Below, one piece after another: positions 2,019 to 51,231 of a DNA stretch of 64,000 nt. Source of the DNA: Patescibacteria group bacterium (lineage in GTDB: Bacteria > Patescibacteriota > Minisyncoccia > Phycocordibacterales > Phycocordibacteraceae); NCBI GenBank assembly GCA_018826905.1, contig JAHJYC010000003.1, forward strand, positions 36,963 through 100,962. Reading direction: 5' to 3'. Each line of letters begins with the position of its first letter. The stretch's first letter is position 1. The position numbers were made by a program, and so were the translations under genes. The notes under the pieces were generated by a model. The model did no database searches. It was not told where the DNA came from and saw only the letters and a list, made by a program, of their open reading frames with translations.

Positions 2019-3548
2019 TTAGCGAGCAAATTCAACGACTCTGTTCTCGCGGATCACATTTACCTTGATTTCTCCTGGGTATTTTAGCTCTGCCTGTACA
2101 CGGTCTGAAATATCGCGAGCAAGTCGGTGCATGGCAAGGTCTGAGACCTTTCCAGGGTTTACGAATATGCGAATCTCGCGTCCTGCTGATATTGCGTATA
2201 CCTTTTCTACGCCAGGGAAGGCAGAAGCGATGCGCTCAAGGTCTCCAAGACGGTCTAGGTACCGCTCTACAGTGTCTCTGCGAGCGCCTGGACGTCCTGC
2301 TGATATTGCGTCTGCCACCTGCACGATTACTGATTCAGGAGTTTCGTACGGATACTCTTCATGGTGCGATTGCATTGCCTGAATCACTGGTTTTGCAACA
2401 CCAAACTTCTCAAGGATCCTGCGCCCGATCTCCACGTGTGTTCCTTCAACTTCATGATCTACCGCTTTTCCAATGTCATGAAGAAGAGCACCTGCCTTAG
2501 CAACATCTATATCTGCACCGAGCTCTGTAGCAAGCATGGTAGCGAGGTGTGCCATTTCAATTGAGTGCTGAAGTACGTTTTGTCCGTAGCTCGTACGGAA
2601 ATGGAGGCGGCCCAGGAGCGCAACCAGGCGAGGATCAAGTCCTACAACGCCAACCTCGTACGCAGCCTCCTCACCCTTTTGTCGCACCATCTCTGTTATC
2701 TCTTCGCGAGCCTTCTCAACACTTTCCTCAATCTTAGCGGGCTGAATACGGCCGTCGCTAATAAGGCGCTCAAGAGCAAGCTTTGCAGTGTGGCGGCGCA
2801 ACGGATCAAAGGAAGAAAGGGTTATTTTGTCCGGAGCGTCGTCAATAATCACATCAACACCAGTAGCGCGTTCAAATGCCTTAATATTTCTTCCTTCCTT
2901 TCCAATAACTTTCCCCTTGATCTCCTCAGACGGAATCTGAACAGAGAGTGTCATCACTTCGTTGTTCACGCTCGCACTCATGCGGTGAATAATAGAAAGA
3001 AGGATGGAGCGGGCCTTCTCCTCAAGCTGTGCTTTTCCGTGTGCCTCAAGCTTCTGAAGACGCACAAGCACACTCTCTTGCTGGCTCTCCTCAAGGTCCT
3101 TCATGAGAAGCGCGCGCGCTTCATTCTCAGAGAGGTGCGCGAGCCGTACGAGCTCTTGTCTGCGTTCGGTAAGCAACTTATCAAATTCACGCTTAAGGTT
3201 AGCCACTTCGTTCTCACGATTCTTTATGTCCTCTGCCTCAATTGAGAGGCCGCGCTCACGATCATCAAGAAATTCCTCACGCTTTGACAGGCGCTCTGCA
3301 TATTTAGCTACTTTTTCCTCACGTTCCCTAATAGGTTCAGAACGCTCGCTCTCCAGCTTTTTTGCGCGGTGCTCAGCGTCTTCAATAAGACGGCTGGCGC
3401 GCTCCTTTGCCTCAAGCATTTTCTGCTTTACCTCAAGCTCAAGCGAGCCACGCTGCCCAAGTGCAATCAAAAGGCGCAGCACATACCCAAGGGCAATGCC
3501 GGCAAGACCCGAAAGGGCCAAAAGGCTCAATACTATTTTTATGGACAT
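2019..3548 (-). CDS. rny: ribonuclease Y
   Basis: 509 aa; N-terminal TM, long coiled coil, KH domain (VIGKEGRNIKAFERATGVDVIID), HD domain (LLHDIGKAVDHE...). Confidence 0.9.
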   Translation of the reverse strand: MSIKIVLSLLALSGLAGIALGYVLRLLIALGQRGSLELEVKQKMLEAKERASRLIEDAEHRAKKLESERSEPIREREEKVAKYAERLSKREEFLDDRERGLSIEAEDIKNRENEVANLKREFDKLLTERRQELVRLAHLSENEARALLMKDLEESQQESVLVRLQKLEAHGKAQLEEKARSILLSIIHRMSASVNNEVMTLSVQIPSEEIKGKVIGKEGRNIKAFERATGVDVIIDDAPDKITLSSFDPLRRHTAKLALERLISDGRIQPAKIEESVEKAREEITEMVRQKGEEAAYEVGVVGLDPRLVALLGRLHFRTSYGQNVLQHSIEMAHLATMLATELGADIDVAKAGALLHDIGKAVDHEVEGTHVEIGRRILEKFGVAKPVIQAMQSHHEEYPYETPESVIVQVADAISAGRPGARRDTVERYLDRLGDLERIASAFPGVEKVYAISAGREIRIFVNPGKVSDLAMHRLARDISDRVQAELKYPGEIKVNVIRENRVVEFAR

Positions 3549-3688
3549 ACAGGGGGAGCTTTTACGCCCTTACGACAGGGAATAAAAGAATATAAACAAA
3601 TGTAAGTGAGGACAGATAAGCAATCAGGTCAGTTGTGCAGATCCTCAGAACATCAGCAAAATAACACGTTTTTTAGGGTTCGTAAAAT

Positions 3689-3733: not shown

Positions 3734-4342
3734 CTATTTTGTCTTGTACACCTGGTCTACAAGCCCATACTTCTTGGCCTCGTCTGCCATCATGAAGTAG
3801 TCGCGGTCCACATCCTTTTCAATTTTAGACAGCTCTTGTCCGGTGGCTTTCGCAAGAATCTTATTCAAGCGATCGCGTGTTGCAAGAATGTGCTTTGCGG
3901 TGATTTCAATGTCAGCTGCCTGTCCCTGCGCGCCTCCCCATGGCTGGTGGATCATCACCTCAGCGTTTGGAAGTGCGTAGCGCTTACCTTTAGCACCAGA
4001 CGCTAAGATAACTGCAGCAGCAGACGCTGCCATACCAACACATACCGTAGATACGTCTGGCTTCACATGATTCATGGTATCCAGAATCGCAAGACCAGCT
4101 GTAACAGAACCGCCAGGAGAGTTTACGTACAAAGAAATATCTTTCTTTGGATCCTCAGACTCAAGAAAGAGGAGCTGGGCGATAATGAGATTGGCCATAT
4201 CATCATCAATACCGCCTCCAAGAAAGACGATGCGGTCTTTTAGAAGACGTGAATAGATATCATACCCACGCTCCCCGAATTGAGATTTCTCAACAACCAT
4301 TGGGACGAGCATGGCGCGAGGATTTTTGTGTTGGTGTTCCAT
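3734..4342 (-). CDS. clpP: ATP-dependent Clp protease proteolytic subunit
   Basis: Start taken at the internal ATG ([16 protein letters not shown]...), giving a 202-aa ClpP; motifs GxSAAAL ([10 protein letters not shown]) and HQP present; the ORF upstream of this ATG has no ClpP similarity. Confidence 0.9.
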
Positions 4343-4424
4343 AGTGAAGAGTATGGTACCAGACGAGAGGAGGGGTACGCAAAAGCGCTCCCTGTAAGGA
4401 GCGCTTTGTGCGAAAGAGGTATCG

Positions 4425-4697
4425 CTATTCTGCAAGCGAGGCCTCAAGCTCTGCAAAGGCTGCGTCAATCTCTTGGTCAAACTGCTCAGGGGATTGAGCT
4501 TCAAGATCTCCCTCAATTGCAGCTTGTTCGGTTGAGTCACTCTGAGTACTGAGTGCCTCAACAACTGAGTCCTCGTTTGCGGGGAACGTATCTCTCAAAT
4601 AAAAGATACCTATTGCAACAAGGAGCATGACGAGAACTGCAATACCGAGTGTGATCCAGGAGATCTTACGAGCTGGAGTTGATGGGGAATATGCCAT
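4425..4697 (-). CDS. small membrane-anchored protein with acidic C-terminus (hypothetical)
   Basis: Start at MAYSPSTP...; one TM helix ([20 protein letters not shown]); 90 aa. Confidence 0.4.
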
Positions 4698-4707
4698 ACA
4701 AGTGAGA

Positions 4708-5520
4708 TTACTGCGCAGGTGTATCCTCGCGCTTTGGTAATGCCGAAACGGTAGCGCGGAGGGCTTCATGTGCGGACCTGAGTGCCTCCTTAGCGCGAGT
4801 AATACTTGGCTGTATTGAACCCAGTAACTCTCTTGGGTTCTCTGAGGCGAGTGCAGATGCAGTTGCGTCTGCTACAGCGGTAATTGCGTCTTCAGCTGCA
4901 GCAATCTTTGTGCGTGCTGTACCTAAGGCGCTTTCAGCAGCACTCGTGTCGGCCCCTCCTTCGCTAAGTTCTGAGATTCTTGCCTCAATGCGATCTGCAA
5001 GACCTGTTAGTCGCAGGCTCATTGCGCTCAATACCTGCATCGCATGATCAAAGCGCTTGCTCACTGCTTCAGTCACGCGCTCCTTAAATAGTTCTTTTCT
5101 CTCAGCAGTACTTGAGGCAAACGCAGCGCGCTTTTCCATAACCTGCTCTTTACGTTCTTCAAGATTTACACGCATGAGTTGCTTGCGCTCCTCTACATGT
5201 ACGCGCACCGCTTCCTTTCGCTCAGCTTGGATTTCTTTTTTTTCCTCAATAGCTGCGGCTCTCTCTTCTTGACGAGCTTCTGGTGTCAGTTGCTCTTTGC
5301 GTAGATCGCGTTCAGCAGCAAGCTCAGCTGCTGTTTTGCGAGCCTCTTGTTGGCGCTCAAGAAGTGCGTCTTTCTTTTCTAAGGCACGTTCTTTCACTTG
5401 AACTGCTCTATCAAGGAAAGTAGGTTCAGGTTTTGGTTCAGTGTTTGTGTCCTGTCCAAATACTGCAGGAGCAGCAAGGAGGAACGTGGCCACAAACATA
5501 ACGAATACAGATATCTTCAT
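4708..5520 (-). CDS. secreted coiled-coil protein (hypothetical)
   Basis: Signal peptide MKISVFVMFVATFLLAAPAVFGQ; E/R/K-rich heptad-like repeats (ERKEAVRVHVEERKQLMRVNLEERKEQ). Confidence 0.5.
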   Translation of the reverse strand: MKISVFVMFVATFLLAAPAVFGQDTNTEPKPEPTFLDRAVQVKERALEKKDALLERQQEARKTAAELAAERDLRKEQLTPEARQEERAAAIEEKKEIQAERKEAVRVHVEERKQLMRVNLEERKEQVMEKRAAFASSTAERKELFKERVTEAVSKRFDHAMQVLSAMSLRLTGLADRIEARISELSEGGADTSAAESALGTARTKIAAAEDAITAVADATASALASENPRELLGSIQPSITRAKEALRSAHEALRATVSALPKREDTPAQ

Positions 5521-8197: not shown

Positions 8198-8614
8198 ATG
8201 CGTACCACCGGTTTCAACACCTGGATGCAGAACAAGAAGGTCCAGACGGCCGCCGTGGCCGCCTGTAGCCTGATCCTCGGCGCCGTCGGCCATGCGATCA
8301 TCACGCCCGAGCCGGTCATCGCCGCCCCGCTGCCCGTCGAGTTCCGCGTCGGTCCCGGCGAGAGTCCGGCCAAATACGTCGGGAACATGACGGCCATCGC
8401 CCTGGGCGATGCCTGCAAGCTCCCGATCTATCTGGGTCAACAGCAGATCCGCAACCATGAGATCACGGCGCAGGAGGCCCGTGGCCACATGGCCGTTACT
8501 CGGAACTTCACCGACATCGTCCAGATCACGGTCGGCGTCCATCCGGACGCCAGGTTCCAGATCGTCGGCTCGACCATCACCTGCCCCGACGGCACCGTGG
8601 TCGGCGAAGGCTGA
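8198..8614 (+). CDS. high-GC (~65-70%, GC3 ~90%) small secreted protein, 138 aa, two Cys; no recognisable family
   Basis: ATG at 8198 preceded by aaggagggg SD; signal peptide MRTTGFNTWMQNKKVQTAAVAACSLILGAVGHA; sharp GC jump relative to flanks; own terminator. Confidence 0.6.
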   Translation: MRTTGFNTWMQNKKVQTAAVAACSLILGAVGHAIITPEPVIAAPLPVEFRVGPGESPAKYVGNMTAIALGDACKLPIYLGQQQIRNHEITAQEARGHMAVTRNFTDIVQITVGVHPDARFQIVGSTITCPDGTVVGEG

Positions 8615-10570: not shown

Positions 10571-10927
10571 ATGAGTAAGGTGTTTGTTGGAATCCTGGTG
10601 TCCGCGTTTTTGGGCGTCATCGTCTATTCGCTCGGCGCCCACTACTTCGGCACCGCGATCATGCCGGGCGGTGAACAGCCGAGTCTGTTCGCGCCGACGC
10701 TGCAGTGGCTGGTCGCCGCGGTGGGAGCGGTCGCCATCTACATGGCGGCCGACGTGGTCGCTTCGGGCGTGCTCGCCATCATCCTGTTCGTCGTCGCCCT
10801 CGTTGTGGGCGGGACGCTGCAGGTCGGCTGGGAGTCCTGGCTCTGGGCTGCTGTCGCTGCCGCCATCGGCGCCACGCTCGGCAACCTGTTCGTTCCGGTT
10901 CAGCGCGGGACCGTGAGCGCCCAGTAG
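10571..10927 (+). CDS. high-GC small polytopic membrane protein, 118 aa (3-4 TM), unknown family
   Basis: gggaggtacc SD 5 nt before ATG; GC3 nearly all G/C; hydrophobic segments VGILVSAFLGVIVYSL, LVAAVGAVAIYMAADVVASGVLAIILFVVALVVGG, LWAAVAAAIGATLGNLFV. Confidence 0.55.
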   Translation: MSKVFVGILVSAFLGVIVYSLGAHYFGTAIMPGGEQPSLFAPTLQWLVAAVGAVAIYMAADVVASGVLAIILFVVALVVGGTLQVGWESWLWAAVAAAIGATLGNLFVPVQRGTVSAQ

Positions 10928-24033: not shown

Positions 24034-24064
24034 GTAGCTACACAGTTCATTGGGAGAGAAGGCC

Positions 24065-24337
24065 ATGCGAGAGAATCAAGAAGTCCCCGCTAGGGGCGGA
24101 CTTCGGAAAGGTGCCGGGAGGTACAAGGAGAAGCGGTGGTACCGCATCATCTTCCACGGCAAGCCGAAACAGCGCGTCAAGGCAGAGGACGACGAGGAAG
24201 CGCGGACTCTGGTGGCTTTCAAGCTGCACTTGCCACATCCGCTCACCGAAGAAGACTTCGTGCGCGTGCACGGCAAGAAGATCCTGGACGACAACAACGT
24301 CCAGATTTTCCCACCGAAAAAAGACACTCGGCACTAA
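24065..24337 (+). CDS. high-GC small basic protein, 90 aa, unknown family
   Basis: gggagagaagg SD then ATG at 24065 (MRENQEVPARGG...RWYRIIFHGKPKQRVK...); GC3 biased; nested between the comEC C-terminal gene and the rpmB 3' end. Confidence 0.5.
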   Translation: MRENQEVPARGGLRKGAGRYKEKRWYRIIFHGKPKQRVKAEDDEEARTLVAFKLHLPHPLTEEDFVRVHGKKILDDNNVQIFPPKKDTRH

Positions 24338-32380: not shown

Positions 32381-32632
32381 ATGACCAAGACACAGACCAA
32401 AGAAGAGGTCTTCAACTTCATGAACCGTCTGGGCCTGATCATCGCCATCACGGGTGTTCTGGTGATGGTGCCCGGCGCCTATCTGACCCTCCACGTCGCC
32501 TTCTTCGGCGTCGCGGACCCGGCCGTCACCGGCGCCCTCATCTTCGGTTCCTACCTGGGTGGCGGCGCTACGCTGGCCGTCGGGCTGGCCCTCAAGGGCA
32601 TCGCCTGGGTCACCCGCTTCGGCTGGCACTGA
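32381..32632 (+). CDS. high-GC small 2-TM membrane protein (83 aa)
   Basis: gaggaggg SD; MTKTQTKEEVFNFMNRLGLIIAITGVLVMVPGAYL...; GC3 biased. Confidence 0.5.
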   Translation: MTKTQTKEEVFNFMNRLGLIIAITGVLVMVPGAYLTLHVAFFGVADPAVTGALIFGSYLGGGATLAVGLALKGIAWVTRFGWH

Positions 32633-32889: not shown

Positions 32890-33099
32890 ATGTCGCTTAA
32901 GAAGATGCTTGGTGTTCCGGTGCTGATTTCGGCCGGGCTCGCGCTCATCATCGCTGCCACCAATACGATCGCACATGCAGGTGGCGCGAAGACGCCCGAA
33001 GACCAGCTGGTGATCGCCTTCGGTCTCGGCGTCGGGATCTGTATCCTTTTCGGTGCTGGTTTTCTGGCCGCCTGGCCGAAGAATCCTCAGCAGCCCTGA
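32890..33099 (+). CDS. high-GC small 2-TM membrane / secreted protein (69 aa)
   Basis: aaggagggaagagag SD; MSLKKMLGVPVLISAGLALIIAATNTIAHAGG... Confidence 0.5.
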   Translation: MSLKKMLGVPVLISAGLALIIAATNTIAHAGGAKTPEDQLVIAFGLGVGICILFGAGFLAAWPKNPQQP

Positions 33100-42982: not shown

Positions 42983-42992
42983 GACACAAAGA

Positions 42993-43025
42993 AAAGCCCC
43001 GCCAGAGTGCGGGGCTTTTCTTTTA
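42993..43025 (+). terminator. rho-independent terminator after rplB
   Basis: aaagccccgccagagtgcggggcttttctttt. Confidence 0.7.
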
Positions 43026-43073
43026 TGTATAGAGAGAGTAGGGTGATGCAGAAGACACGCCAGGAGGTAAGTG

Positions 43074-43307
43074 ATGCACATTTTTCGTTCGCTCCGCCTG
43101 AGAAAGTGGCGAGAACAACAACGGTTGAGGCGAGAGCTCAGGAAGACAGTAAGCTATCTGAAACATCTCGCCTCTATGTATGAGGAAACTAAAGGAAACG
43201 ACGATCAATCAAAGATCCTCCTTTGGGTAATTAAGGCCTGGTACGCACGAAAATGGGAATTGATGAGAAAGATCAAGCCCCCTTTGCGTTCCAGGTACAA
43301 GACTTAA
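43074..43307 (+). CDS. hypothetical small basic protein (77 aa) with perfect SD
   Basis: caggaggtaagtgATG; R/K-rich (pI high); followed by hairpin gccagctatagtacgctggttcttttt. Confidence 0.35.
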   Translation: MHIFRSLRLRKWREQQRLRRELRKTVSYLKHLASMYEETKGNDDQSKILLWVIKAWYARKWELMRKIKPPLRSRYKT

Positions 43308-43332
43308 GCCAGCTATAGTACGCTGGTTCTTT

Positions 43333-44172
43333 TTATGGAACGTACTTCTCGTTCAGAACTTCTGAAAGCTGTGCGAGCGGAATAGATACACTTTGTGGCC
43401 CAAGCGCATAGGGACCAACTTGGTAGGGAGGGAACAGGAAGACTAGAGTGTTTCCTTCAACAACAAAGGTCTGAAAGTTAGCGGTCTCTGGGGCTGTGCC
43501 TTGCTGCATGTAGGAGACATCTGCATCTTCTCCAAGTTTCTTTTGAAGCTCAAAGCGTGCAATCTCAGAGATGCGCTTTAGATAGTCTGTGCGGGGCTTG
43601 AATAAAGAGGCGAGTGAAAGCTCTGCGCCAGTTTCTGCATCAAAAACGAAGGTCCTATAGAAAGAGTTCGGGTGTGCACCAAACGTGTCTGTATAGAGCG
43701 TATAGGCGTATGAGACGGTATGTGGAGCGAGTACTTCGTTGTATTCAATAGCGAGCGCCTGCTTCCTCCCGTCCTCGTATCCCATCATTTGAATATCCTC
43801 TTTTGTGAGGCTTGCGAAGTTACCTTCACGCTTGAACTGTTGAATGGTGTCTTCAACAAAGCTCTTCATAGTGTCTATAGCCTCTACGTCTGCAGTGGTT
43901 CCTGCAGAGACTGAGAGGGGTGTCTCAGACGGGTACGCAGCCTCAATATCGTAATACTGCGCATGTTCACGAATAGTCTGTGGTTCTGTAGGAGGAACAG
44001 GTACCGTCTCTTCTACGAGAGGACTATAAGGCTCTGGTGCCTGATGGGTGGCCATGTACCAAAGAGAAAGTCCAAGGACTACCGCTATGAGAGCACCAGC
44101 ACCGAGAAGTTCCAGCTTCTGAACACGAGTGAGAGAGTGAATGTTCCACATATAGGAAGAAGTATAGCCCAT
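43333..44172 (-). CDS. membrane-anchored DUF3298/DUF4163 (RsiV/PdaC-like) domain protein
   Basis: N-terminal TM; ...YAYTLYTDTFGAHPNSFYRTFVFD... characteristic of DUF3298. Confidence 0.55.
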   Translation of the reverse strand: MGYTSSYMWNIHSLTRVQKLELLGAGALIAVVLGLSLWYMATHQAPEPYSPLVEETVPVPPTEPQTIREHAQYYDIEAAYPSETPLSVSAGTTADVEAIDTMKSFVEDTIQQFKREGNFASLTKEDIQMMGYEDGRKQALAIEYNEVLAPHTVSYAYTLYTDTFGAHPNSFYRTFVFDAETGAELSLASLFKPRTDYLKRISEIARFELQKKLGEDADVSYMQQGTAPETANFQTFVVEGNTLVFLFPPYQVGPYALGPQSVSIPLAQLSEVLNEKYVP

Positions 44173-44181
44173 AAATGAAAA

Positions 44182-44207
44182 GGGCCGGATGCGTGTGCGT
44201 CCGGCCC
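44182..44207 (-). terminator. terminator hairpin immediately upstream of (abutting) the DUF3298 gene start, terminating the small acidic peptide gene
   Basis: gggccggatgcgtgtgcgtccggccc with U-run on the minus transcript. Confidence 0.55.
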
Positions 44208-44225
44208 CTGGAAAGATCTGGTGCT

Positions 44226-44372
44226 TTACCAGAAGATACTGTCAGGATCGTAGCCGGGGTCAGAGTTCCAACTCATCATTGAATCAATGGCCCCATCATC
44301 AATCTCGGGGTCTTCCCCAAGATCCTGACTGTCAGAATCGGTGGCTGGAAAGCCACCCAGCGTAGTTGTCAT
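44226..44372 (-). CDS. high-GC small acidic peptide (48 aa)
   Basis: Not in the ORF track (<60 aa); found by translating the minus strand: gagggaggaatagcATG then MTTTLGGFPATDSDSQDLGEDPEIDDGAIDSMMSWNSDPGYDPDSIFW*. Confidence 0.4.
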   Translation of the reverse strand: MTTTLGGFPATDSDSQDLGEDPEIDDGAIDSMMSWNSDPGYDPDSIFW

Positions 44373-44413
44373 GCTATTCCTCCCTCTCAACTACTTTTTC
44401 ACCCTATCATGAA

Positions 44414-44440
44414 AAAAGCTATGCGCGAGCATAGCTTGTG
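44414..44440 (-). terminator. terminator between the two small acidic peptide genes
   Basis: agctatgcgcgagcatagct perfect hairpin + U-run on the minus transcript. Confidence 0.55.
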
Positions 44441-44449
44441 TTGGCTATT

Positions 44450-44620
44450 CTAGCCAAAAGAGCCCACCAGCCGGCGCACCATAGCATCAGCGTCCTGAAA
44501 GAGGCCTCCATAGATGGCGAGCGCGCCTTCACCGAATTCTTCAGTGATTTCAGCGATTGCAGACGTTACATCTGCGTGCGGGACGGGCTCCTCGGCCTGT
44601 CCACGGGTATCTGTAGTCAT
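44450..44620 (-). CDS. high-GC small acidic protein (56 aa)
   Basis: gagggaggaagtATG SD; MTTDTRGQAEEPVPHADVTSAIAEITEEFGEGALAIYGGLFQDADAMVRRLVGSFG. Confidence 0.45.
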   Translation of the reverse strand: MTTDTRGQAEEPVPHADVTSAIAEITEEFGEGALAIYGGLFQDADAMVRRLVGSFG

Positions 44621-44737
44621 ACTTCCTCCCTCGTTGAGCACCAAAGTACCCTATCATGGAGCCCGGTAGTTTGACACTTCTCTCTGTTTCATATAGATTC
44701 TATCTATCCCGCCTGGCGGGCTTTCCATTGTCTATCT

Positions 44738-47445: not shown

Positions 47446-47787
47446 ATGTCAAAAGCAACTCAAGGAAAGCAAACCGCAAAGTTTAAAATAAAGAAAGGCG
47501 ACACAGTCGTGGTTATTTCAGGCAAGGACAAGGGTAAGACCGGCGCTGTTGAGCGTGTACTCCGCGAAGAGGCGAAGGTAGTAGTTGAGGGTATTGCACT
47601 CGTAAAGCGACACAATCGTGGAACTCGCGGACAGACAGGGCGAATTGTAGAGAAGCCTCGCGCAATCTCAATCTCAAACGTTATGATTCAGGACCCTAAG
47701 GAAAAGAAGGGAACTCGTGTAAAGCGTGAGATGAAGGATGGAAAGCGCGTTCGTGTGTCAGTTAAGAGTGGCACGACACTCTCCTAA
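47446..47787 (+). CDS. rplX: 50S ribosomal protein L24
   Basis: KOW motif, 113 aa. Confidence 0.9.
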   Translation: MSKATQGKQTAKFKIKKGDTVVVISGKDKGKTGAVERVLREEAKVVVEGIALVKRHNRGTRGQTGRIVEKPRAISISNVMIQDPKEKKGTRVKREMKDGKRVRVSVKSGTTLS

Positions 47788-48335
47788 TGAATTTGAGTAT
47801 GATGATGACTAAAGAAAAACAAGCAAAGGCGTATGAGGCTCTCAAAGAGAAGTTCGGATACACGAACCTCTTTGCAAGTCCTCGTCTTCAGAAGATCGTT
47901 GTATCTTCAGGAGTTGGTAAGGCAGACAAGGCGCGTAAGGCATTTGTTGAGAAGCGTCTTGCAACTATCACTGGCCAGAAGGCATCTCCTCGTGCATCTA
48001 AGCAGTCTATTGCACAGTTTAAGATGCGTCAGGGCGAGATTGTCGGGTATCAGGTAACGATGCGTGGAGCTCGCATGAATGACTTCCTAGACAAGCTCAT
48101 TCACATTACGCTTCCTCGTACTCGTGACTTCCGTGGACTCTCAGCTACTGCTATTGATGAGATGGGGAACCTTACGATTGGTATTAAGGACCACACTATC
48201 TTCCCAGAGACTGCAGACGAAGATCTCAAGGATGTGTTTGGTGTTGCTGTTACGCTCGTAACAACAGCAAAGACTAAAGAAGAGGCAGAAGCCTTCTTCC
48301 GCTACCTCGGTATTCCGTTTACGGCTGCTGTATAA
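47787..48335 (+). CDS. rplE: 50S ribosomal protein L5
   Basis: L5 family, 182 aa. Confidence 0.9.
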   Translation: MNLSMMMTKEKQAKAYEALKEKFGYTNLFASPRLQKIVVSSGVGKADKARKAFVEKRLATITGQKASPRASKQSIAQFKMRQGEIVGYQVTMRGARMNDFLDKLIHITLPRTRDFRGLSATAIDEMGNLTIGIKDHTIFPETADEDLKDVFGVAVTLVTTAKTKEEAEAFFRYLGIPFTAAV

Positions 48336-48354
48336 AGAAGAGGATGTTGCAAAA

Positions 48355-48377
48355 GAGCCCGGAAACGGGCTCTTTTG
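48355..48377 (+). terminator. rho-independent terminator after rplE
   Basis: gagcccggaaacgggctcttttg. Confidence 0.6.
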
Positions 48378-48402
48378 ACATATAGAAACAGGGTTGTAGT
48401 AT
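48375..48402 (+). promoter_or_regulatory. sigma70-like promoter TTGACA-N16-TAGTAT driving the high-GC lipoprotein cassette
   Basis: ttgacatatagaaacagggttgtagtat. Confidence 0.4.
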
Positions 48403-48452
48403 CAAAATACTAAGTTTGGTAGTTGTATCAGGCTTTTAAGAAGGAGGATGAA

Positions 48453-48944
48453 GTGAGAAAGATGTTCTTTGCGGGGGCTCTTGTCCTTGCACTTTCCGCC
48501 TGCGACAGGAACACGGACAACAATCTGCGGTACGAAGTTTCCGTGGACTACCGTGAGCCTGTGGGCGCCGTGGTCAGGGAGCTCGGCCTTAACACGGAGG
48601 AAGTGCCTGTGTACGAGGTCATGAACCGCAGCAGGCATGGAGTCGGCGAAGAGCTTCGCTGGATGCGCGTGGTTCGGCATCGGGAGCTGAAGGACACCTA
48701 CAGCCCCAAAAACGGGTTTCACCCGGCCGATACGCGCGAAATGCTGGCGTTCTACGCCACGCACCCCCAGGCAGTGCCTTTCAAAGGGCTCTGCGCTCCG
48801 GGCGAGCAACTGCCGCTTGGGGAAGGGGTGATCGGCGTGCCGGTTATCACGCGCGCAGGCAATCTCGGCATTTCCGCCCATGGCTGCAAGAAGCCGGGCC
48901 GTCGCGTGCTCGTGGTGCGAGATTTCGGCCGCACGCAGCCCTGA
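48453..48944 (+). CDS. high-GC lipoprotein (~163 aa), unknown family
   Basis: aaggagg SD 5 nt before GTG 48453 (alternative ATG 48462); lipobox LVLALSAC; GC3 nearly all G/C; own terminator. Confidence 0.55.
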   Translation: MRKMFFAGALVLALSACDRNTDNNLRYEVSVDYREPVGAVVRELGLNTEEVPVYEVMNRSRHGVGEELRWMRVVRHRELKDTYSPKNGFHPADTREMLAFYATHPQAVPFKGLCAPGEQLPLGEGVIGVPVITRAGNLGISAHGCKKPGRRVLVVRDFGRTQP

Positions 48945-48950
48945 ATATAC

Positions 48951-48990
48951 GGTCCCCATGTCTTCATTGGCGCGGGGACCATTTTCTTTG
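48951..48990 (+). terminator. terminator of the lipoprotein cassette
   Basis: ggtccccatgtcttcattggcgcggggacc + attttcttt. Confidence 0.55.
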
Positions 48991-49061
48991 GGGTCAATGT
49001 TTGACAGCCTATATCCTTACTGATAGATTACATGAACGGCTCCCCGGAGCTATTTTTTCTT

Positions 49062-49331
49062 ATGGCCAAAGCCTCACAAATCGCCCGCAACAACAAGAGA
49101 ATTAAACTTGTTGAGAAGTACGCAGAAAAGCGTGCTGCTCTTAAGGCTGCTGGTGATTGGGAAGGGCTTCAGAAGCTCCCTAAGAATTCATCTCCTGTTC
49201 GTGTAAAGAATCGCTGTGCAGTTACTGGTCGTCAGCGTGGATTTATGCGCCACTTCGGTCTTTCTCGTATCACCTTCCGCGAGCTCGCTCGTGAGGGAAA
49301 GATTCCGGGAGTTAAGAAAGCCTCTTGGTAA
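49062..49331 (+). CDS. rpsN: 30S ribosomal protein S14
   Basis: [13 protein letters not shown]...; start at the internal ATG; possible TTGACA-N17-TAGATT promoter at 49001-49029. Confidence 0.85.
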
Positions 49332-50631: not shown

Positions 50632-51231
50632 ATGACTGACACACCAACACCAACCATGGATACTGAGAAGAAGGCACCGGAGACCACTCCAGAGACTGCA
50701 ACTACAGCAGCACCTACTCGCGACGACCGTCGTGGCGGAGGACGTCGCCCAGGTGGCCGTGATTCACGTGGACGCGGACCCCGTGCTCCTCGTGAGCGCT
50801 CAGAGTTTGAGCAGGCAACAATTGAAGTGCGCCGTGTTGCTCGTGTGATGGCTGGAGGACGTCGTTTCTCCTTCTCTGTAACAGTAGTTATTGGAGACAA
50901 GAAGGGACGCGTGGGTGTTGGCCTTGGAAAGGGAGCTGATACTGCACTCGCTATTGATAAGGCAGTACGAGATGCTAAGAAGCACCTCATCACCGTTGCT
51001 CGCACTGCAGACGGTTCTATCGCGCATGATGTCTCTGTAAAGAACTCATCTTCAATAGTTACTATCGTTCCGAGTCCTGGTCGCGGTATCGTTGCAGGGT
51101 CTGCGATGCGTGTCGTGCTTGAACATGCAGGCGTAACGAACGTCGTTGCGAAAATCCTTACTCGCACTAAGAACAAGCTTACTATTGCTCGTGCAACCGT
51201 AGATGCACTTGCAAGCGCAGGCGCTCGCTAA
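50632..51231 (+). CDS. rpsE: 30S ribosomal protein S5 with low-complexity N-terminal extension
   Basis: S5 dsRBD + C-domain; followed directly by L15 (no L30 gene). Confidence 0.9.
   Translation: MTDTPTPTMDTEKKAPETTPETATTAAPTRDDRRGGGRRPGGRDSRGRGPRAPRERSEFEQATIEVRRVARVMAGGRRFSFSVTVVIGDKKGRVGVGLGKGADTALAIDKAVRDAKKHLITVARTADGSIAHDVSVKNSSSIVTIVPSPGRGIVAGSAMRVVLEHAGVTNVVAKILTRTKNKLTIARATVDALASAGAR

Follow-up and report, generated by a model that had tools for sequence, protein, structure and literature searches.

Organisation of the rplE-rpsN interval

We analysed a 64-kb stretch of DNA from a Patescibacteria group bacterium (contig JAHJYC010000003.1; the whole stretch is hereafter called the window) and focused on the 726 bases that separate rplE (end at 48335) from rpsN (start at 49062) in the spc operon. 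An original prediction made on this DNA had placed there a self-contained unit composed of a promoter, a Shine-Dalgarno (SD) sequence, a lipoprotein gene and a terminator, followed by a second promoter, TTGACA-N17-TAGATT, ahead of rpsN. All the elements of the unit were found in place, and the second promoter was located at 49001-49029, from where it is predicted to restart rpsN transcription separately. The interval and its two borders, as retrieved from the list of open reading frames (ORFs) and from inspection of the sequence, are organised as follows.

47799..48335, plus strand: rplE (uL5), upstream border of the slot, from the ORF list; alternative ATG at 47787; Pfam Ribosomal_L5 on orthologs
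48350..48377, plus strand: intrinsic terminator of rplE, a perfect 12-bp A/U-flanked stem with a GAAA loop, whose 3' T-run overlaps the next -35 box
48375..48402, plus strand: predicted promoter of the lipoprotein gene, TTGACA-N16-TAGTAT (-35 at 48375-48380, -10 at 48397-48402), matching 10/12 consensus positions
48441..48447, plus strand: SD sequence AAGGAGG, 5 nt upstream of the GTG, read from the sequence
48453..48944, plus strand: lipoprotein coding sequence (CDS), 163 amino acids (aa), GTG start; the protein begins MRKMFFAGALVLALSAC, with lipobox LSAC and the Cys17 codon at 48501-48503
48951..48989, plus strand: intrinsic terminator of the lipoprotein gene, a hairpin (48951-48980) followed by the T-run ATTTTCTTT
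49000..49029, plus strand: predicted rpsN promoter, (T)TTGACA-N17-TGATAGATT, with TTGACA at 49001-49006, TAGATT at 49024-49029 and an upstream TG giving an extended -10, from a consensus scan
49038..49061, plus strand: rpsN 5' leader, a short hairpin GGCTCCCCGGAGCT very close to the 5' end predicted for the transcript, and a U-rich tract between it and the ATG
49062..49331, plus strand: rpsN (uS14, long 89-aa form), downstream border of the slot, from the ORF list; Pfam Ribosomal_S14 on orthologs

Close comparisons were carried out between three reference lineages, i.e. the window and two relatives designated L004 and L001, in which the rplE protein is 96-97% identical to that of the window. 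The rplE terminator, all the -35 and -10 hexamers and about 75 nt of the rpsN promoter and leader are almost invariant among the three, as against divergences of 0.3-1.2 at synonymous sites (dS). The sequence of the rplE terminator is identical in all of them, and its hairpin folds with a free energy (dG) of -23.4 kcal/mol (z -6.9; 0/200 shuffles fold as well). The terminator of the lipoprotein gene reaches -20.9 kcal/mol in the window, -21.9 in L004 and -30 in L001, again with no shuffle folding as well, and its stem is kept by paired changes (GGTCCCC/GGGGACC, GGTCTCCATG/CATGGAGGCC and GGTCCCCATGCC/GGCATGGGGACC, respectively). Both intrinsic terminators follow the usual rule for such elements, with a stable GC-rich hairpin and a U-run that are kept in relatives.

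Regarding the promoters, both hexamers of the one preceding the lipoprotein gene are invariant in the three lineages while the adjoining spacer bases vary, and the one preceding rpsN, which also matches 10/12 consensus positions, is nearly invariant across lineages. The two predicted promoters fit the sigma-70-type rule, their hexamers being spaced by 16-18 nt and better conserved than their surroundings. Promoter-like sites are no more numerous in the region than in shuffled sequences (8 found, 8.0 expected), so that the case for these promoters rests on their conservation. The same arrangement was recovered in at least 7 independent assemblies and is therefore not an assembly artefact.

Coding status and evolutionary rate of the lipoprotein gene

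The original prediction had described a high-GC lipoprotein of about 163 aa, with a GTG start and a lipobox, whose gene is compositionally foreign to its present host. This description holds: the 163-aa ORF has a GC content of 62.6% (0.63) and a GC content at third codon positions (GC3) of 0.75, compared with 47-50% GC and a GC3 of 0.44-0.47 in the flanking ribosomal genes and a window mean of 48.5% GC. Close matches to the ORF come from only three protein clusters (99, 90 and 73% identity), which all belong to Patescibacteria and are all located between rplE and rpsN.

Nucleotide differences between the window, L004 and L001 are distributed over the three plus-strand codon positions as 10/11/33 and 32/27/81, and the ratio of nonsynonymous to synonymous divergence (dN/dS) of the gene is 0.18-0.19. 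On this substitution pattern, we consider the ORF a true CDS under purifying selection. Its dN is 0.06-0.21, versus ~0.02 for the flanking ribosomal genes, which points to an evolution roughly ten times faster than that of its neighbours. In L001 the GGAGG is kept and an ATG stands where the window has its GTG, which confirms the start site.

A different reading is that of a spurious ORF or of a structured, non-coding GC-rich spacer, in which ORFs on both strands would be mere by-products of high GC. An antisense ORF of 185 aa (48402-48959, minus strand) is indeed kept open in relatives, and no match to the lipoprotein ORF was found in Pfam, NCBIfam or PHROGs. This reading is nevertheless contradicted by the excess of third-position changes in the plus-strand frame with a dN/dS of 0.18, by the conserved SD sequence and start codon, by a confident AlphaFold2 model built from 10 homologs (predicted local distance difference test, pLDDT, 83; predicted template modelling score, pTM, 0.78) and by a protein family that keeps Cys, His and Pro residues invariant in members as little as 26% identical; we give it almost no credence. 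The antisense ORF, which overlaps the whole lipoprotein gene, was itself discarded as a high-GC by-product; the substitution pattern fits the plus strand.

The rplE-rpsN slot in related species

The rplE neighbourhoods were taken from 80 species-representative genomes related to the window, and spacer statistics cover the 67 representatives in which both rplE and rpsN were found. The spacer measures at most 100 bp in 5 of these 67 species, 101-400 bp in 8 and more than 400 bp in 54, with a maximum of ~3.6 kb. Empty-like junctions were found in L031, L039, L050 and L059 (tblastn gaps of 64-72 bp). Where the spacer exceeds 100 bp, a hairpin followed by a T-run lies within 110 nt of rplE in 51 of 62 species.

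At least 12 cargo families without mutual relationship were distinguished in the slot, and each of them is found conserved in 2-5 species. One of them resembles what we take to be a YbiA/NADAR-type protein and another, presumably, a helix-turn-helix protein; the others include several families without known identity, and two larger ones appear to carry signal peptides. A common origin of the cargo was considered, as the families of L016, L023 and L026 seemed by eye to share motifs with the lipoprotein, and was rejected: against the lipoprotein, hhalign probabilities were below 5% for 14/14 families tested.

Homologs of the lipoprotein share 26-40% identity with the window protein in loci where L5 is 89-95% and S14 82-92% identical. 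In 9/9 lineages with a readable context the gene adjoins rplE and/or rpsN, several contigs being short and displaying one flank only; slot-located homologs include P0004, P0005, P0007, P0009, P0011 and those of L008 and L099. Among known contexts, the family is thus confined to the rplE-rpsN slot. One carrier, L089, is distant (S8 67% identical), and the intermediate lineages (S8 82-84%) hold other cargo.

The sequence located 5' of rpsN forms a module that is conserved across the related group, TTTGACAGCCTA..CTGATA(G/C)ATT..ACGGCTCCCCGGAGCTATTTTTTCTTATG. The pattern of its promoter part is present in 36 of the 40 species with a long S14, including loci without insert. Where rplE and rpsN are adjacent, the module begins 9 nt past the rplE stop (L031) or its -35 box overlaps the end of rplE (L039, L050 and L059). 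Since it is present at empty as well as filled sites, the TTTGACA located downstream of the lipoprotein gene belongs, as -35 box, to an internal rpsN promoter of ancestral origin.

The leader that follows, GGCUCCCCGGAGCU, then a U-tract, then the AUG, is conserved in 27 lineages, with variation in the loop only (CCCG/CTCG/TCCG/TTCG). The fold of its hairpin is weak (dG -5.7, z -1.2), the stem being invariant with almost no covariation, and an invariant GGAG located 12 nt upstream of the rpsN AUG falls within its 3' arm. Possible roles of this putative hairpin are to stabilise the 5' end or to mask a ribosome-binding element. An Rfam scan of positions 48300-49120, covering the leader and the terminators, returned only sub-threshold chance matches (best 18.7 bits, gathering score 47). 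In L009, L027 and L054, the module lies further upstream, from ~50 nt (L054) to 95 nt (L009, L027) before the ATG, with added sequence between the leader hairpin and the start codon.

The TTTGACA repeat and the case against a recent insertion

The heptamer TTTGACA lies at 48374 and 49000, i.e. 626 bp apart. Its presence at both boundaries, reported in the original prediction, is real; the interpretation as duplicated junctions is not, as both copies are -35 contexts of promoters. In the window, the heptamer occurs 6 times for 11.5 expected, and three of these copies are -35 boxes in the ribosomal cluster: the repeat is no chance match, yet it is no junction duplication either. The upstream copy arises where the terminator T-run, through its last T, joins the -35 box that serves the lipoprotein gene. 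In L008/L090, the closest sister lineage whose slot holds a homolog, the junction reads ctcttttgcttttt and lacks TTTGACA. Deletion of the unit with one TTTGACA had been expected to recreate a single terminator-promoter-rpsN arrangement. The empty sites have no rplE terminator at all, so that such a deletion recreates no observed state.

These features bear directly on the possibility that a 626-bp mobile cassette landed recently between rplE and rpsN and duplicated a TTTGACA target. Such an event would account for a compact and self-contained unit, for its GC content (0.63, versus 0.48 for the host), for the heptamer on both sides and for the few relatives with an empty rplE-rpsN junction. It is contradicted by the homologs at 26-40% identity in the same slot of sister lineages, there with host-like GC, by the ancestral nature of the downstream heptamer, found at empty sites, by the lack of the upstream heptamer in L008/L090 and by empty sites devoid of an rplE terminator. 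Furthermore, the genes called in the flanking loci include none identifiable as a recombinase (no scan was made for inverted repeats or attC-like sites), and no boundary sequence is common to the lipoprotein unit and the other GC-rich units of the window. We therefore hold a recent cassette to be very improbable.

The original prediction had itself stated that related genomes carrying the gene natively, with host-like composition, would speak against a foreign insert; inspection of the rplE-rpsN spacers of relatives revealed exactly this in L090, L093 and L094. An insertion between rplE and rpsN can still be spoken of relative to the adjacency seen in L031, L039, L050 and L059, though not in the sense of a discrete mobile cassette. 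By all these comparisons, the lipoprotein gene appears as no recent mobile insertion but as a long-standing, fast-evolving occupant of the slot.

GC composition and probable allele exchange

Most relatives have a GC content of 54-63%. In GC-rich carriers the GC3 of the gene compares with that of the ribosomal genes as 0.67 versus 0.65-0.77 (L090), 0.75 versus 0.83 (L093) and 0.70 versus 0.68-0.75 (L094), and L099 is a 60% GC contig. In lower-GC hosts, the corresponding values for gene and host are 0.66-0.76 versus 0.44-0.50 in the window clade, 0.71 versus 0.49-0.60 in L087 and 0.49 versus 0.39 in L089.

Synonymous divergence was further compared between the gene and its flanks, the latter represented by 11 flanking genes (1,532 codons; 95% intervals in brackets). 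For the window and L004, dS is 0.56 (0.49-0.63) in the flanks and 0.33 (0.21-0.47) in the lipoprotein gene; for the window and L001, 0.61 (0.54-0.68) and 1.19 (0.82-2.1); for L004 and L001, 0.43 (0.38-0.48) and 1.01 (0.71-1.5). The sister pair thus differs between flanks and gene, i.e. their genealogies are incongruent. Additionally, the window-L004 dS is lower beside the slot (0.37-0.42 in rplX, rplE and rpsN) than in distal genes (0.56-0.86). The incongruence, together with this local decrease, points to homologous exchange of the slot region between lineages. The GC island in a 48.5% GC host would then be best explained by the import of alleles from GC-rich relatives, possibly combined with GC-biased gene conversion.

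Strict vertical inheritance offers another explanation, in which the gene would have resided in the slot since a GC-rich ancestor and retained its GC while the genome drifted AT-ward, with nothing but relaxed or variable rates behind its unusual divergence. The slot is the same in all lineages, the window clade (~48-49% GC) lies apparently inside a 54-63% GC group (as judged by protein identity, without a tree), and the ribosomal genes may have synonymous rates lowered by codon bias. Under this scenario, however, a fast gene should lose GC3 at least as quickly as its neighbours, and it stands at 0.66-0.76 versus 0.44-0.50; moreover, the window-L004 dS of the gene is below that of the flanks (0.33 versus 0.56), whereas the pairs involving L001 reach about twice the flank values. 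As the sister relationship is reversed between gene and flanks, rate variation alone is insufficient, and we regard strict vertical inheritance as unlikely.

Four more GC-rich one-gene units, encoding small membrane or secreted proteins, were observed in the window at 8198-8614, 10571-10927, 32381-32632 and 32890-33099. Three of them have a GC content of 0.64-0.66 and the fourth ~0.60, and GC3 reaches 0.87 in the two that were read in frame. Each displays, by eye, its own promoter-like site, SD sequence and terminator, and they lie between conserved genes (nusA/pilB-like ATPase, pilB-like/pilC-like and rpsG/fusA). Neither among themselves nor with the lipoprotein unit do they have sequence in common: a search for shared boundary motifs among the five GC-rich or inserted units of the window gave short chance matches only, none with E < 0.01. 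Their occurrence suggests that they reflect the same process as the lipoprotein gene. Another local GC peak comes from rpsE (uS5): at 50632-50800, a GC-rich stretch extends the N-terminus by ~55-60 residues of low complexity, in which Thr, Pro, Arg and Gly abound.

Lipoprotein signal, family and structure

The N-terminus, MRK-MFFAGALVLAL-SAC17, forms a signal peptide with lipobox (codons 1-17) followed by a mature domain of ~146 aa. Positions 7-17 satisfy the PROSITE PS51257 pattern as read from the sequence, with a positively charged n-region, a hydrophobic and uncharged h-region and a lipobox of the form [LVI][ASTVI][GAS]C whose Cys falls within the first 35 residues; the Pfam LPAM_1 match is sub-threshold (11.7 bits, cut-off 20). 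Cys17 is invariant in 10/10 aligned family members (26-90% identity), and the other invariant or near-invariant residues are Y33, E96, F100, H104, P105, C114, A115 and C145. Where three further Cys had been announced, only two exist beyond that of the lipobox (114 and 145), the protein holding three in total (17, 114 and 145). The protein is probably lipid-anchored at Cys17 on the cell surface.

A search with a profile hidden Markov model (HMM) in 1.84 billion representative proteins gave ten matches at E <= 0.001, of which about eight are convincing (154-188 aa, with a lipobox). A word-indexed search added no family member, and a metagenome scan gave one extra locus, L099. The family therefore seems to be very rare and restricted, among the sequences searched, to Patescibacteria. 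In the window itself, a 95-aa ORF at 24050-24337, in a mildly GC-rich patch, weakly matches the family profile (E 0.029 among window ORFs) through an EEARTLVAF..HLPHP-like motif, probably by chance.

The AlphaFold model evaluated above, obtained from the ten-sequence alignment, has an alpha/beta architecture. A Foldseek search with this model returned no significant neighbour (best matches at E > 0.5). The protein most plausibly acts as a surface ligand- or cell-binding protein.

Relationship with variable proteins of diversity-generating retroelements

P0012, which the profile search of 1.84 billion proteins had retrieved as its weakest match (E 5.8e-4), led to a large unannotated family of ~200-aa proteins from the candidate phyla radiation (CPR) and soil bacteria, hereafter A4, with the motif VTVDY...RGLRPA.IEELLALGA..PELQREFPIVALGS...RFAAVRK. 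Sequence searches of Pfam, NCBIfam, PHROGs and the PDB gave no match for either family. The alignment of the lipoprotein family (A3) was compared with that of A4 using hhalign: the mature domain of the lipoprotein corresponds to the C-terminal domain of A4 with a probability of 96.9% (E 1.6e-10, 127 columns). Conversely, when the A4 HMM was run over all six-frame ORFs of the window, the lipoprotein ORF was the best match.

A4 member P0122 lies ~0.5 kb upstream of bAvd and reverse transcriptase (RT; RVT_1) genes. The last 134 nt of its CDS are repeated downstream, as the variable repeat (VR) and template repeat (TR) of a diversity-generating retroelement (DGR), and all 20 positions at which the two differ are adenines in the template (11 A to T, 8 A to G and 1 A to C). 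This pattern, along with bAvd and RVT_1, makes P0122 a verified DGR target. The lipoprotein is best seen as a relative of DGR variable proteins that is lipid-anchored and not itself diversified; the homology to such a family is observed, and its function and fold class are predicted.

The shared region of ~127 columns includes the core strand VxVDY, the helix RPAxxxELLAF..HP and the C-terminal strands. A4 proteins differ by a cytoplasmic-looking N-terminal helical extension without signal peptide, where the window family has its lipoprotein signal instead, and by the absence of the two conserved Cys (114 and 145).

TvpA of Treponema denticola, a DGR target, is a lipoprotein. The small window protein shares with TvpA and with LdtA of Legionella pneumophila a layout in which a lipoprotein signal precedes a DGR-variable-type ligand-binding domain (PMC5758913). 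Surface lipoproteins such as LdtA are DGR targets with ligand-binding C-terminal domains (PMC5758913). Unlike them, the window protein has no template repeat, RT or Avd in the window, its C-terminal region is conserved and not hypervariable, and it has no sequence match to a solved structure, the C-type-lectin fold being weakly suggested.

Could the lipoprotein be an active DGR target, diversified in its C-terminal region by an RT and a template repeat located elsewhere in the genome, as is LdtA? Its domain is homologous to a family with a verified target, lipoprotein targets are known, and a survey reports CPR DGRs with ribosomal protein genes between the DGR genes (PMC5758913). The data run the other way. 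A blastn of the gene against the whole 64-kb window found no second copy of any part of it (best extra match 17 nt), and neither the window (E > 2) nor loci L001-L094 gave a match when the RT and Avd of L096 were used in tblastn. Residues 114-158, i.e. the C-terminal ~50, are among the best-conserved parts in the window, P0001 and P0003 (L004/L001 lineages). Finally, no strain-level variation was seen in independent assemblies: L005, an independent assembly of the window lineage, is identical to the window across the 786 nt compared. Active diversification is accordingly given a very low probability, and the description as a non-diversified relative is retained.

A complete DGR was observed in L096 (2395-6499, Rokubacteria contig JACQFL010000018) and L097. 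It comprises three paralogous A4-family target genes (2395-2880, 2986-3561 and 4001-4612), a 134-bp template repeat (4963-5096), bAvd on the minus strand and an adjacent RVT_1, with 20/20 VR/TR mismatches at template adenines. In CPR genomes, A4 members were also found beside ribosomal protein genes (after rplU, before rpsU), at 6001-6609 in L100/L101 and 335-946 in L102, with no RT within 6 kb.

Proposed model for the slot

The reading we favour, with a probability of about 0.62, is that the interval holds a monocistronic unit encoding a lipoprotein of the Sec/signal peptidase II (SPII) type, long resident in an accessory slot of the spc operon that extends across the clade, exchanged as alleles and related to DGR variable proteins. 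Several observations count against it. The transcripts are predicted from sequence, as are the lipidation and surface exposure of the protein, and a crude motif scan of the 64-kb window found no convincing Lgt or LspA signature. C-type-lectin domains are only weak Foldseek matches (TM <= 0.31), so that a lectin fold is not established. DGR linkage was seen in one of the four A4 contexts examined, and the other three lack an RT within 4-6 kb. Among GC-rich lineages, no donor allele was sampled above 40% identity, and we thus only infer transfer from a GC-rich relative. The patchy distribution of the family fits ancient residence with repeated replacement as well as it fits lateral spread.

Under the favoured reading, an ancestral internal promoter with its leader lies directly upstream of rpsN in Paceibacteria-type Patescibacteria, as the species comparison indicates. 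Because rpsN owns a promoter, the gap could, on the simplest reading, accept DNA without starving rpsN and the genes downstream. The conservation pattern itself is observed; from it we infer the absence of polar effects, i.e. that DNA located between the rplE stop and the rpsN promoter would not cut these genes off. Most species carry 0.5-3.6 kb of cargo specific to their lineage, as a rule preceded by a strong terminator closing the rplE transcript, and terminators would then insulate the inserted genes. In the window, the conserved elements predict that transcription of the cargo starts at a sigma-70-type promoter of its own and ends at a terminator that also belongs to it. The lipoprotein gene would be swapped between related lineages by homologous recombination through the conserved flanks, and the protein in this genome would be fixed rather than diversified by a retroelement.

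A more far-reaching proposal, which we put forward as speculative and rather improbable, is that the rplE-rpsN gap of Paceibacteria-type CPR is a dedicated exchange site for surface proteins. The terminator and the rpsN restart promoter would insulate it, the near-invariant flanks would serve as recombination arms, and the lipoprotein would be a host- or ligand-recognition adhesin derived from DGR variable proteins, its diversity arising by allele exchange and not by retro-mutagenesis; the other GC-rich units (nusA/pilB, pilB/pilC, rpsG/fusA) would belong to the same gene flow.

Comparison with known systems and significance

Chromosomal integration hotspots are variable regions bounded by conserved core genes. 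The slot resembles them by its fixed pair of core genes around highly variable accessory content and by signs of homologous recombination in the flanks; it differs in being tiny (0.5-3.6 kb, mostly one gene), inside an essential operon and without integrase, tRNA or prophage signature. Gene insertions in the ribosomal cluster of Gammaproteobacteria and Bacilli (tusDCB, bfd-bfr, nrdHEF, ilv-leu) lie mostly between operons, with the same genes clade-wide, nrdHEF being located inside the rpoBC operon. The window site, by contrast, lies within the spc operon, has an internal restart promoter and receives cargo that varies by lineage.

In the ribosomal operon cluster, insertions are rare and mostly between operons, and rpsN has been replaced by recombination within the spc operon (PMC8046335). 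A close likeness is rpsN2 of Streptococcus pneumoniae, a long form recombined into the spc operon, as the rplE-rpsN-rpsH segment is there a documented recombination site in a very stable cluster (PMC8046335); rpsN of the window is also of the long form, with 89 aa. In the published replacements the ribosomal gene itself was exchanged, whereas here rpsN has beside it an additional gene, non-ribosomal and equipped with a promoter and a terminator, and most species of the clade show the phenomenon. A literature search of incomplete coverage found no published description of the rplE-rpsN slot.

The S10-spc-alpha cluster is among the most stable bacterial gene arrangements and forms the backbone of phylogenies of uncultured CPR. 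In one large CPR group, it is routinely interrupted at a fixed point, rplE/rpsN, which has an internal restart promoter and receives lineage-specific, often fast-evolving cargo, with consequences for operon prediction, marker-gene binning and recombination estimates in these organisms. The slot-bound family is a candidate for surface recognition in bacteria whose presumed lifestyle is attachment to host cells. Finally, the GC-rich islands offer a tractable case in which import from GC-rich relatives, or GC-biased gene conversion, may be tested as a force on the composition of reduced genomes.

Further variation in the ribosomal cluster

In L064, L065 and L085 (Patescibacteria UBA2103 group), S14 is 84-86% identical to that of the window, whereas L24, L5 and S8 are at 51-63% (L5 62-63%, S8 53-56%). 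This suggests a horizontal replacement of rpsN, possibly together with its promoter.

A second break of the ribosomal cluster was observed in the window at 42983-44737, between rplB and rpsS, in an arrangement conserved in L001-L005. Past the rplB terminator, it holds one small ORF on the plus strand (~43074-43308) and, on the minus strand, a DUF3298 gene (43333-44172) and two small acidic ORFs. These are followed by a putative restart promoter, TTTGACA-N17-TAGATT (44670-44699), a GC hairpin (44708-44720) and a T-rich leader, i.e. the same design as before rpsN.

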